DNA of 64,000 nt from Escherichia phage JK1. Both the position numbers and the translations under genes were made by a program. Within the stretch, counting starts at the first letter, position 1. Every line of letters begins with the position of its first letter. The notes under the pieces are model-generated. The model had not been told where the DNA came from. It saw nothing but the letters and a program-made list of their open reading frames with translations, and did not search any database. Location of the stretch: sequence record MZ436830.1; one strand, written 5' to 3'. Below are positions 3,136 through 4,863 of the stretch, piece after piece.

Positions 3136-3186
3136 AGGCCCGGAAAGGCCTAGATACCAAAAAGCCCCAACCTTTTGGTCGGGGCT
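3136..3186 (-). terminator. tandem hairpins plus U-run after the 3194..3655 gene
   Basis: AGGCC-CGGAAA-GGCCT (3136..3151) then AGCCCCAACC-TTTT-GGTCGGGGCT (3163..3186); minus-strand RNA has the hairpin followed by UUUUU. Confidence 0.55.
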
Positions 3187-3193
3187 AAGAATG

Positions 3194-3655
3194 TTATTTG
3201 ATTTGTTTAGCAGACCAAATGCGATCTTTAATAATTTTTTGGATGTCTTCAACATACTCTAGGTCATGAGCATGTGGATTATCTTTGAAACTATGAGCTC
3301 GCGCAAGTTTCTGGCCTTCGGTCTTAATTATCAAAAGTTCTTTAAGAATTGCTTCATACCTAGAGATAATTCCTTTAGCAATATTTTTTTCTTGTGCTGC
3401 TTTAGGGTCAGCCTTAGGAGCAGGTTTACCAGAAGGTTTTTCGAAAGCCGCACCAGTAGCAACCAGGCTTTTCCAGGCGGTGGTAACATAGTTACCCACA
3501 AAGCCTTCAGCTCTCATATCGTCATAGAACTTGTACCGAGATTCGTCAGAAGCATCTTTATAAGAATATTTACCAGCTTTAATAGCAGCAGTTGCTACAG
3601 CGCGAACATCTGAAGCGGATGCTTCGGTCATTAAAAATTGAGCATAAGTTTTCAT
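3194..3655 (-). CDS. capsid-targeted internal-protein-like protein with divergent CTS (MKTYAQFLMTE)
   Basis: ORF track 153 aa; N-terminus resembles T4 internal-protein capsid targeting sequence MKTYQEFIAE with an L-x-E gp21 cleavage motif; late promoter TATAAATA 30 nt upstream; Lys/Ala-rich body. Confidence 0.55.
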   Translation of the reverse strand: MKTYAQFLMTEASASDVRAVATAAIKAGKYSYKDASDESRYKFYDDMRAEGFVGNYVTTAWKSLVATGAAFEKPSGKPAPKADPKAAQEKNIAKGIISRYEAILKELLIIKTEGQKLARAHSFKDNPHAHDLEYVEDIQKIIKDRIWSAKQIK

Positions 3656-3683
3656 TATTATTTCCTGTGTTAATTAACTCATC

Positions 3684-3691
3684 TATTTATA
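3684..3691 (-). promoter_or_regulatory. T4 late promoter TATAAATA for the 3194..3655 gene
   Basis: Plus strand tatttata is the reverse complement of TATAAATA, about 29 nt upstream of the ATG at 3655. Confidence 0.6.
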
Positions 3692-3721
3692 CCAAAAAGC
3701 CCCAACCTTTCGGCTGGGGCT
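3692..3721 (-). terminator. rho-independent terminator at the end of the tRNA/stable-RNA transcription unit
   Basis: AGCCCCAACC-TTTC-GGCTGGGGCT hairpin; minus-strand RNA has the hairpin followed by UUUUU; near-identical copy at 3157..3186. Confidence 0.6.
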
Positions 3722-3772
3722 AAGCCTTGCGGCAACCTTGTCGGGGTTCCACCTGCTAAGGCAAGTGTTTGT

Positions 3773-3864
3773 ACGAAACGCCGGGATTCGAACCCGGTTA
3801 TTAAGTAGTTGACGCTACTCAATATTTTTAAAAGGCCATATCTCGACCATATCCGAACGTTCCG
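3773..3864 (-). ncRNA. tRNA-like small stable RNA (possibly equivalent to T4 RNA C/D); 5' boundary uncertain
   Basis: Perfect T-arm CCGGG-TTCGAAT-CCCGG (3781..3797 rc) and a 7-bp acceptor-like pairing (3774..3780 with 3858..3864), but no canonical D or anticodon arm could be folded. Confidence 0.35.
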
Positions 3865-4035
3865 TCAAAAACGCTACTCGGCTTATGGCAAAGATATTTC
3901 CTCGAATCGATAATTCGGTGCGCCGTTTCTGCTGTGATGTAAGAGGGCATCAATAAACGTAAAGATTATTAACGCAATTCCTTACTCAGGGAACATCAGT
4001 CCGACGACTTGCCGGTAGCGACCCGGCTTCTTGTC

Positions 4036-4111
4036 TGGTCGAGGCAGTAGGGATCGAACCTACGACCCAGGACTTAGAAGGTCCTTGCTCTTCCTTCTGA
4101 GCTATGCCTCG
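4036..4111 (-). tRNA. tRNA-Arg (anticodon UCU)
   Basis: Cloverleaf folded by hand: acceptor CGAGGCA/TGCCTCG, T-arm GTAGG-GATCGAA-CCTAC, anticodon loop CTTCTAA, CCA encoded. Confidence 0.85.
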
Positions 4112-4115
4112 TATT

Positions 4116-4190
4116 TGGCGGACGTGATAGGATTCGAACCTATAACCAATCGCTTAACAGGCGATCGCTCTGCCATTGAGCTACACATCC
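4116..4190 (-). tRNA. tRNA-Asn (anticodon GUU)
   Basis: 5' GGATGTG-TA-GCTCAATGGCAGAGC D-arm, anticodon loop CTGTTAA, T-arm with TTCGAAT loop, CCA encoded. Confidence 0.8.
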
Positions 4191-4194
4191 AAAT

Positions 4195-4281
4195 TGGTGG
4201 GGAGTGGTGGAGTCGAACCACCCGAGTCGCAATGACAATGGATTTACAGTCCACACCGCTACCTCTACGGGATAACTCCCC
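4195..4281 (-). tRNA. tRNA-Tyr (anticodon GUA), type II with long variable arm
   Basis: 87 nt; acceptor GGGGAGT/ACTCCCC, anticodon loop CTGTAAA, variable-arm hairpin, T-arm GGTGG-TTCGACT-CCACC, CCA encoded. Confidence 0.7.
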
Positions 4282-4290
4282 AAATTAATT

Positions 4291-4365
4291 TGGTGGCCCT
4301 GGGTGGAATTGAACCACCATCTGGCGATTATGAGTCGCTTGCTTGAACCTTCCAGCTACAGGGCC
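4291..4365 (-). tRNA. tRNA-Ile (gene anticodon CAU; AUA-decoding type as in T4) or tRNA-Met
   Basis: Acceptor CAGGGCC/GGCCCTG, anticodon loop CTCATAA, T-arm GGTGG-TTCAATT-CCACC, CCA encoded; Ile assignment by analogy with T4. Confidence 0.7.
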
Positions 4366-4366
4366 T

Positions 4367-4442
4367 TGGTGCTGATTGACGGAATCGAACCGCCGACCTT
4401 CTCATTACAAGTGAGTTGCTCTACCTACTGAGCTAAATCAGC
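4367..4442 (-). tRNA. tRNA-Thr (anticodon UGU)
   Basis: Acceptor GCTGATT/AATCAGC, anticodon loop CTTGTAA, CCA encoded. Confidence 0.85.
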
Positions 4443-4447
4443 AAAAC

Positions 4448-4537
4448 TGGCGGAGGCGATAGGATTTGAACCTATGAGTCGCCGGAGCGACTGCCGGTTT
4501 TCAAGACCGGTGCATTAAACCACTCTGCCACGCCTCC
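4448..4537 (-). tRNA. tRNA-Ser (anticodon UGA), type II
   Basis: 90 nt; GGAGGCG-TG-GCAGAGTGGTTTAATGC D-arm, anticodon loop CTTGAAA, long variable arm, T-arm ATAGG-TTCAAAT-CCTAT, CCA encoded. Confidence 0.85.
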
Positions 4538-4539
4538 AG

Positions 4540-4613
4540 TCTCCATACAAGGATTTGAACCTTGGACCTCCTGATCCCAAATCAGGCGCTCTACCAAACT
4601 GAGCTACACGGAG
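4540..4613 (-). tRNA. tRNA-Pro (anticodon UGG)
   Basis: 5' CTCCGTG-TA-GCTCAGTTTGGTAGAGC, anticodon loop TTTGGGA, T-arm CAAGG-TTCAAAT-CCTTG; no encoded CCA. Confidence 0.85.
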
Positions 4614-4623
4614 TAAATTAAAT

Positions 4624-4697
<74 letters not shown>

Positions 4698-4702
4698 AAA
4701 TT

Positions 4703-4789
4703 TGGTGCGAGAAGTGGGACTCGAACCCACAAGGAAATCATTCCGCAGCATTTTAAGTGCTGTGCCTTTACCAATTTGACCATTCTCGC
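4703..4789 (-). tRNA. tRNA-Leu (anticodon UAA), type II
   Basis: 87 nt; acceptor GCGAGAA/TTCTCGC, anticodon loop CTTAAAA, T-arm GTGGG-TTCGAGT-CCCAC, CCA encoded; 1 nt from tRNA-Gln. Confidence 0.85.
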
Positions 4790-4790
4790 G

Positions 4791-4863
4791 CTGGGAATAA
4801 AGGACTCGAACCTTTGCATCCTGGAATCAAAATCCAGTGCCTTACCAACTTGGCTAATTCCCA
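4791..4863 (-). tRNA. tRNA-Gln (anticodon UUG)
   Basis: 5' TGGGAAT-TA-GCCAAGTTGGTAAGGC, anticodon loop TTTTGAT, T-arm AAAGG-TTCGAGT-CCTTT; no encoded CCA. Confidence 0.85.

Follow-up and report, generated by a model that had tools for sequence, protein, structure and literature searches.

Copies of the T4 stable RNA genes rnaD and rnaC downstream of the tRNA cluster of Escherichia phage JK1, with a comparative model of a tRNA-shaped rnaC

Introduction

Which product is encoded behind the last gene of a transfer RNA (tRNA) cluster, where a perfect T arm lies outside of any recognizable tRNA? This question is raised by the interval 3773-4035 in a stretch of 64,000 nucleotides (nt) from Escherichia phage JK1 (sequence record MZ436830.1), being located directly downstream of tRNA-Arg on the minus strand. 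We refer to the whole stretch as the window; all positions are window coordinates and the RNAs are read on the minus strand. A first interpretation based on the letters alone (the sequence-only reading) had proposed one or two tRNA-like stable RNAs that do not decode, at the place of two stable RNAs of phage T4.

According to the analysis presented here, the interval very probably holds a Tequatrovirus-type phage's copies of the known T4 genes rnaD and rnaC, with rnaC being a tRNA-shaped non-decoder that would be processed like a tRNA. Both genes are already known objects and ordinary in a T4-like genome. The T4 species 1 and 2 RNA genes have been known since the 1970s and are textbook features. 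The added value of our study lies in a comparative structure of rnaC and a covariance model, neither of which is curated as far as Rfam and the searched literature show.

Results and Discussion

Identity of the interval

A BLAST search with positions 3640-4120(-) against 50,697 phage records yielded 936 matching records, nearly all from T4-like phages of enterobacteria, and those carrying annotation label the DNA rnaD and rnaC. Gene ends were transferred from the annotation of RB27 (KM607000), RB59 (KM607003), and T4 (AF158101), the latter naming the genes "small, stable RNA; species 1 RNA" and "species 2 RNA". The transferred genes agree almost to the base with the interval:

3772-3910, minus strand: rnaC, 139 nt, orthologue of the T4 species 1 RNA (annotation transfer, identity, covariance model R1)
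3916-4034, minus strand: rnaD, orthologue of the T4 species 2 RNA (annotation transfer from RB27, RB59, and T4; alignment)

Across the full 139/139 nt, rnaC of the window is 98.6% identical to its counterparts in T4, RB59, and RB27, while rnaD reaches 97% identity to RB59 and 90% to RB27. BLAST and annotation transfer thereby bear out the suspected equivalence with T4 RNA C and RNA D. Compared with T4 rnaC (AF158101 70908-71046), the window copy differs by only two substitutions and shares the strand, the predicted ends, and the gene order tRNA-Arg, rnaD, rnaC, trailer, terminator; past the terminator, the window additionally has an open reading frame (ORF) of 153 amino acids (aa) and a second terminator copy. 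With respect to T4 rnaD (AF158101 71053-71171), the window copy is 97% identical to the RB59/T4 type and has the same invariant 5' hairpin and closing helix.

In T4, RNAC has been shown by northern blot to accumulate as a discrete, stable, and abundant RNA of ~140 nt, the two RNAs being assigned to the late class (PMC9697503). Their biological roles are stated to be unknown (PMC3014915), and our literature search for function or structure, which covered neither the T4 genome review nor the papers that first sequenced these RNAs, returned only statements of this kind.

ARAGORN made no tRNA or tmRNA (transfer-messenger RNA) call in 3772-4035, its ten tRNAs all being located at 4036-4863. Using Rfam at gathering thresholds (4227 families), no family covers rnaC or rnaD and only the ten tRNAs matched. 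A permissive Rfam scan of 3600-4120 (E up to 10) gave noise only: the best match was tRNA-Sec at 3773-3865 with 17 bits versus a gathering threshold of 47 (E = 1.3), and permuted tmRNA appeared as nothing but a 10-bit fragment match on the T loop. Measured against the tRNA family (RF00005, ARAGORN), rnaC stays below the required score and lacks the anticodon stem-loop, while displaying an acceptor stem that is formed by its 5' and 3' ends and stacks on a T arm whose loop fits UUCRANN. No anticodon stem-loop with a conserved anticodon was found in rnaC. Of the tmRNA hallmarks, rnaC has neither the tag reading frame nor the pseudoknots, and G3·U70 is replaced by G3-C. The sequence-only reading had been unable to fold a standard D or anticodon arm, in line with ARAGORN and Rfam, which find none in the interval. 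Its view that the RNAs are not decoders stood as well: the interval was screened for a standard tRNA with a valid anticodon, and no covariance-model hit of this kind turned up. The Rfam scan and the comparison with the T4 species 1 and 2 RNA genes that it had recommended gave no tRNA family match and orthology with both T4 genes, respectively.

A comparative fold of rnaC

For the structural analysis, rnaC was numbered from the U at window position 3910 (position 1) and compared within a set of 28 distinct homologues (alignment A6) from at least ten genera of T4-like phages. The window rnaC folds at -50.6 kcal/mol, corresponding to z = -5.2 versus shuffled versions. In the proposed structure, 89.4% of the cells of the 28 sequences form standard pairs, compared with 34-48% if the 3' partners are slid. 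Compensatory change is found in 33 of the 51 pairs, and the observed values were reached by none of 500 shuffles. Based on these data, the fold is well supported: rnaC is a complete four-way junction locked by a loop-loop interaction, being more elaborate than a T arm plus acceptor helix. The molecule is tRNA-shaped without an anticodon arm and, as judged from this fold, would not decode. The following elements constitute the model:

3903-3910, minus strand: acceptor stem 5' strand UCGAUUCG, positions 1-8, pairing with 3773-3780
3773-3780, minus strand: acceptor stem 3' strand CGUUUCGU, positions 131-138, followed by A (3772) and the encoded CAA
3781-3797, minus strand: T arm CCGGG-UUCGAAU-CCCGG, positions 114-118/126-130, adjoining the acceptor 3' strand in tRNA fashion
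3799-3824, minus strand: hairpin 2 with a 10-base-pair (bp) stem, positions 87-96/103-112, 1 nt 5' of the T arm
3838-3897, minus strand: long arm of ~60 nt, positions 14-73, with three helical segments and an apical stem, replacing D and anticodon arms
3833-3835, minus strand: CCU within the conserved GGCCUU; according to the minimum-energy fold, it would form a short junction helix with AGG at 3900-3902
3863-3868, minus strand: apical hexaloop UUGACG of the long arm, positions 43-48, loop-loop partner
3809-3814, minus strand: hexaloop CGUCAA of hairpin 2, positions 97-102, exact complement of 3863-3868

The perfect T arm noticed from the letters was recovered at 3781-3797(-). It is 100% paired across the 28 sequences, with covariation at two of its five pairs. 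Its T-loop motif GGTTCGAATCC, allowing at most one mismatch, has eight occurrences in the 64-kb window. Each of them lies on the minus strand within 3784-4812, seven in tRNAs and one in rnaC; 0.53 occurrences are expected by chance and none of 100 shuffles reached eight. Within the acceptor stem, five pairs are 100% paired and pair 4:135 covaries (G-C in 19, A-U in nine sequences). Nearly all sequences have U·U at positions 1, 5, and 6, giving U1·U138 and a conserved tandem U·U. The two internal mismatches are replaced by U-A and C-G in Yersinia phage TG1, and position 1 is A-U in three of five Marfavirus-type sequences.

Hairpin 2, matching in its position the long variable arm of a class II tRNA, covaries at eight of ten pairs with 93% of its cells paired. 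The helices of the long arm show compensatory changes at 20 of 22 pairs, including all five pairs of the apical stem, and single-sequence folds revealed that this arm exists as two very different sequence types with one architecture. The predicted junction helix AGG 9-11/CCU 76-78 is invariant across the homologues and hence offers no covariation to judge it by.

As a side observation, rnaC of Serratia phage LC53 (L022, 226-368) has the non-canonical T loop UGCAUCC together with GUCGCC in place of the conserved AUGGCC. A link between both changes, such as a contact of the GG with the T loop, is conceivable from this single sequence.

The substitution pattern of rnaC also bears on the idea that the interval codes for small proteins, which we regard as extremely unlikely. 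ORFs starting with TTG (41 and 47 aa) do overlap the region, and many GenBank records carry "hypothetical protein" features under the match. The substitutions, however, follow a compensatory base-pair pattern, homologues differ by insertions or deletions of 1 and 2 nt and by wholesale replacement of the long arm with the fold kept, and the curated T4 record puts stable RNAs at this place.

Loop-loop pairing

All six pairs between the two hexaloops hold in 28 of 28 sequences, compared with 17-50% if the partner is slid. Two independent compensatory double changes were observed: UUGGCG/CGCCAA (A-U to G-C) in five Marfavirus-type sequences and UUGAUG/CAUCAA (C-G to U-A) in TG1. In addition, phage BMB16 has the G·U intermediate UUGGCG/CGUCAA. 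This provides good comparative evidence for an intramolecular pairing of the rnaC hexaloops, which would lock the body of the molecule. Scans of IMG/VR and metagenomes for more divergent homologues returned only sequence types that were already known, and consequently the covariation is limited to these two events and one intermediate.

A comparable geometry is known from the TAR-TAR* complex of human immunodeficiency virus (HIV), a six-nucleotide loop-loop complex in which all six bases are able to pair. Likewise, rnaC has two fully complementary hexaloops; in contrast, these are situated within one molecule, and their pairing is known from comparison alone.

The loops also concern the suggestion that rnaC and/or rnaD are regulatory small RNAs acting by base pairing on host or phage messenger RNAs. 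The term "small regulatory RNAs" has been used, without evidence, in PMC9697503 and PMC12685909, and conserved single-stranded runs are available in rnaC (UU..AAAAU) as well as in rnaD (GACUGA/AGAAA). Such a role is nevertheless improbable. The most conserved loops of rnaC are taken up by each other, the tRNA-like module would be superfluous, and no target is known, with a T4 review stating that no trans-acting small RNA has been characterized (PMC3014915).

Alternative acceptor helix and false tRNA calls

An acceptor-like helix as described by the sequence-only reading does exist, and two 5' strands come into consideration for CGUUUCGU, the terminal UCGAUUCG being favored over the internal ACGGAACG. 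The latter (3858-3865, positions 46-53) is also able to pair with the acceptor 3' strand at 3773-3780 and is used by the ARAGORN calls in relatives as well as by the tRNA-Sec alignment. As a conserved fold, this internal helix was rejected: it shows no compensatory change, its G-U becomes A-C in Karamvirus, three mismatches each occur in TG1 and in the second long-arm type, and it is incompatible with the apical stem and the loop-loop helix, both being 100% paired and covarying. The comparative data favor the 5'-terminal strand UCGAUUCG as the acceptor partner; a transient alternative conformer with internal pairing is possible in T4-type sequences.

Since the 3' strand can pair with the internal ACGGAACG, two false tRNA calls arise in relatives. 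ARAGORN reports Lys-UUU in G2133 (L014, 546-639) and Phe-GAA in Entb_43 (L010, 546-641) on the 3' ~94 nt of rnaC, and GenBank record MK327928 lists the 3' part of rnaC as tRNA-Lys. Taken at face value, together with the 17-bit tRNA-Sec match and an internal acceptor that is 85% paired overall, these entries would make the 3' ~94 nt of rnaC a genuine, unusual class II tRNA that decodes, with a long variable arm and an 8-bp acceptor. We consider this to have hardly any chance of being correct. There is no such call in the window itself, and the Rfam score is far from gathering. The two "anticodons" disagree with each other and sit in a linker of variable length and sequence with no anticodon stem. 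The internal acceptor is broken in Karamvirus, TG1, and the second sequence type without any compensation, and its formation would disrupt the covarying apical stem and loop-loop helix. Furthermore, the T4 annotation and the design of the northern probe put the 5' end at U3910, not near 3865. An anticodon within the GGCCUU-NNN-AAAAU linker (UUA, CUA, UGA, and others) was also tried and rejected, as no stem flanks this linker and its length ranges between 2 and 6 nt.

In T4-type rnaC, AGCGUUUUUGAC (3864-3875(-), apical stem and loop) resembles GGCGUUUCGUAC (3772-3783(-), acceptor 3' strand and tail). The internal segment mimics the acceptor 5' strand because of this likeness, which may be the trace of an internal duplication.

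rnaD

The second RNA shows a different type of conservation. In 13 homologues, the first ~54 nt and the last ~25 nt of rnaD are invariant, and the center is hypervariable with at least three unrelated hairpin types, the central hairpin of the window being one of these. The window rnaD folds only slightly better than its shuffled versions (z = -2.0). Two elements frame the molecule:

4011-4027, minus strand: 5' hairpin GCCGG-GUCGCUA-CCGGC, consensus RCCGG-GUCGCUA-CCGGY, with an invariant 7-nt loop
3918-3925, minus strand: 3' strand CGGCGCAC of the closing helix, pairing with GUCGUCG at 4002-4008

The closing pair 16:32 of the 5' hairpin covaries (AU in nine, GC in three, GU in one), and its loop GUCGCUA is not a T loop. 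The closing helix (GUCGUCG with CGGCG(C)AC), which carries the 3' end, comprises seven pairs that are invariant except for a U-A to U-G change in T6. The 3' end reads ...CACC-G in the window versus ...CACC-A, i.e., an encoded CACCA, in T4. This ...CACC end is the sole tRNA-like trait of rnaD, which has neither a T arm nor an acceptor/T stack and is not tRNA-shaped. The proposed tRNA-like stable RNAs were thus recovered in part: the description fits rnaC with its acceptor/T-arm stack and fails for rnaD. From its conservation pattern, rnaD appears to be a separate module in which a terminal clamp of 5' hairpin and closing helix is kept and the central hairpin varies freely.

A pairing between the two RNAs (rnaD GUCGCUA with rnaC UAGCGU; GAAACG with CGUUUC) was discarded, the matches spanning only 5-6 nt and the RNAs occurring independently. 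When a T4-like phage was evolved on host ECOR34, one convergent single-nucleotide polymorphism in rnaD reportedly arose in every line (PMC12685909), which hints at a host-specific role.

When the 5' hairpin is read on the plus strand (4011-4027(+)), a T-rich run follows and the element obtains a terminator-like score. It could end antisense transcription into the tRNA cluster, or be a coincidence.

Distribution and tRNA-like handling

For rnaC, 680 of 747 matching records show an identity of at least 95%, and these span Tequatrovirus, Mosigvirus, and Gaprivervirus; this compares with only 119 of 735 records for rnaD, which falls below 80% in 143. More distant rnaC homologues, being 82-86% identical or matching in the 3' half only, were found in Karamvirus, Tegunavirus, Gelderlandvirus, Moonvirus, Kanagawavirus, Winklervirus, and Marfavirus. 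The covariance model R1, built from rnaC homologues, scores 118-159 bits on 29 homologues and at most 25 bits on everything else in ~197 kb of collected sequence, tRNAs included. It gives 154 bits on rnaC of the window, which is the single copy therein. The rnaC motif was searched for twice in 185,579 species genomes of bacteria and archaea without any match; at the stringency used, rnaC is restricted to phages.

Both RNAs occur independently of each other. In the group from Karamvirus to Marfavirus, rnaC is present without rnaD; conversely, Yersinia phage P8 (L005, 595-730) has rnaD without rnaC. In JS98 (L004, 681-815), the 3' end of rnaD is joined to the trailer that usually follows rnaC (..GCGCAC-AGAACACTTG), representing a clean loss of rnaC.

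The position of rnaC relative to tRNA genes differs between genera. It sits between tRNA-Trp and tRNA-Gly in Karamvirus and Gelderlandvirus, just upstream of tRNA-Gly in Moonvirus, and just upstream of tRNA-Trp in Tegunavirus and Winklervirus. Its spacers of 5-6 nt equal those between tRNAs, as exemplified in the window:

3911-3915, minus strand: spacer AAUUA from rnaD to rnaC, of the same 5-nt AA..A form as the tRNA-Trp/rnaC spacer elsewhere

In other genera, the upstream AA..A spacer follows the CCA of the preceding tRNA, and in T4-type phages the ...CACC(A/G) end of rnaD. Downstream, the rnaC tail A-CAA(A/U) is followed by the next tRNA within a few nt in the other genera. In tRNAs, RNase P, 3'-trimming nucleases, and the CCA-adding enzyme recognize the acceptor/T-arm stack. 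Being placed between tRNAs with tRNA-like spacers, rnaC is therefore probably excised like a tRNA, presumably by the tRNA-processing machinery of the host. Because this stack is what tRNA-processing enzymes read, these enzymes would cut rnaC from the operon transcript via its acceptor/T-arm module, and the RNA would become metabolically stable for the same reasons as a tRNA. By analogy, we infer maturation by RNase P and CCA addition, as the sequence-only reading had envisaged.

Several observations weigh against such a tRNA-shaped, tRNA-processed rnaC. With U1·U138 and the tandem U·U, the acceptor stem contains three non-standard positions, leaving 65% of its cells in standard pairs, and the internal ACGGAACG helix competes at the 85% given above. 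The encoded 3' tail is A-CAA, not CCA. Moreover, rnaC is missing from the relatives JS98 and P8, both having rnaD, and the whole T4 tRNA region can be deleted in the laboratory. Any function of rnaC would therefore be accessory.

Relation to other tRNA-like RNAs

Compared with canonical tRNA (RF00005), and class II tRNA especially, rnaC shares an acceptor stem of 7-8 bp formed from both ends, an adjoining T stem of 5 bp that bears a UUCGAAU loop, a hairpin directly 5' of the T arm as in class II, and the placement in tRNA arrays with tRNA-like spacers. It differs in lacking an anticodon stem-loop and a D arm of normal size, a 60-nt arm being found there instead, and in the tandem U·U of the acceptor.

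The tRNA-like domain of tmRNA has in common with rnaC the acceptor stem formed by the 5' and 3' ends, the T arm, and the absence of an anticodon arm. In contrast, rnaC measures 139 nt only and has no tag reading frame, pseudoknots, G3·U70, or encoded CCA. This comparison also affects the proposal that rnaC is aminoacylated and acts either as an aminoacyl donor outside of the ribosome or, like tmRNA, as a rescue factor. Acceptor stem, T arm, and discriminator A are present for such a role, a hairpin occupies the variable-arm position, and the synthetases LeuRS and SerRS are independent of the anticodon. Yet CCA is not encoded, the tmRNA identity pair is replaced by G3-C, there is neither a tag reading frame with pseudoknots nor an ARAGORN or Rfam tmRNA call, and a tandem U·U interrupts the acceptor stem. 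We accordingly rate aminoacylation of rnaC as very unlikely.

Bacterial Y RNA YrlA and other tRNA mimics are non-coding RNAs with a tRNA-like module that are thought to engage tRNA-binding proteins. YrlA shares with rnaC such a module with a T-arm-like element; its termini form a Ro-binding stem, whereas those of rnaC form the acceptor stem. No Rfam match to YrlA or another tRNA-mimic family was obtained at E up to 10, and E. coli is not known to have the Ro partner.

Possible function of rnaC

For the role of rnaC after its release, we tentatively favor tRNA mimicry. The RNA may act in trans by imitating a tRNA and thereby occupying or diverting a host or phage protein that binds tRNA, candidate partners being a tRNA-targeting defense nuclease or an enzyme of tRNA maturation or tRNA charging. 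Going further, rnaC might represent an uncurated tRNA-shaped family confined to enterobacterial T4-like phages, its members combining an acceptor/T-arm module with a body locked by the pairing of their two hexaloops. It would act as a tRNA decoy that binds or inhibits a tRNA-targeting defense nuclease of the host or another tRNA-binding enzyme, with rnaD as a second, host-specific module; we put this forward as a rather doubtful possibility. If true, the 50-year-old question on the T4 species 1 and 2 RNAs would be answered by anti-defense or host takeover.

Alternatively, rnaC and rnaD could be cis-acting by-products that protect the operon transcript from exonucleases or guide its processing, with no function once released. 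T4-type phages indeed place both at the 3' end of the operon just ahead of the terminator, and they are dispensable in some relatives. We judge this explanation unlikely. In five genera (Karamvirus, Gelderlandvirus, Moonvirus, Tegunavirus, and Winklervirus), rnaC is situated mid-array, and in T4 it is a discrete and abundant RNA (PMC9697503). A spacer would need neither invariant complementary hexaloops nor a conservation of 97-100% across three genera while rnaD drifts to 77%. A purely protective 3' structure is at odds with the mid-array position in other genera, the invariant complementary loops, and the extreme degree of conservation.

Regardless of the role, the lack of an Rfam family means that rnaC and rnaD routinely go without annotation, are wrongly entered as "hypothetical protein", or are mistaken for tRNAs. 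The covariance model would let annotators recognize rnaC across at least ten genera of T4-like phages, and the comparative fold (acceptor stem, T arm, long arm, paired hexaloops) supplies mutable elements for functional tests. With both at hand, the function of rnaC becomes experimentally approachable.

Operon context and neighboring genes

Upstream of the two RNAs, a cluster of ten tRNA genes was identified by ARAGORN and Rfam at 4036-4863(-), encoding Gln, Leu, Gly, Pro, Ser, Thr, Met(CAU), Tyr, Asn, and Arg. The encoded CCA end of tRNA-Arg lies 1 nt ahead of rnaD. Very probably, rnaD and rnaC are co-transcribed with this cluster on the minus strand, ending at the intrinsic terminator at 3698-3721. 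The features delimiting the two RNAs are:

4036-4111, minus strand: tRNA-Arg(UCU), last gene of the ten-tRNA cluster (ARAGORN; Rfam tRNA 65.8 bits)
3722-3771, minus strand: 3' trailer between rnaC and the terminator, kept in T4, RB27, and RB59
3693-3721, minus strand: intrinsic terminator of the tRNA/rnaD/rnaC unit, with a 10-bp stem, seven G-C pairs, a GAAA loop, and a U run

In T4, eight tRNAs and the homing-endonuclease gene segB are found, compared with the window cluster that is devoid of segB and has the layout of RB27. Beyond the trailer, two near-identical intrinsic terminators at 3163-3186(-) and 3698-3721(-) flank the 153-aa ORF at 3194-3655(-), which belongs to PHROG 2280 (unknown function) and has no Pfam match. 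This ORF is present at the same place in RB27 and absent there in T4 and RB59; it looks like an inserted gene cassette with a duplicated terminator.

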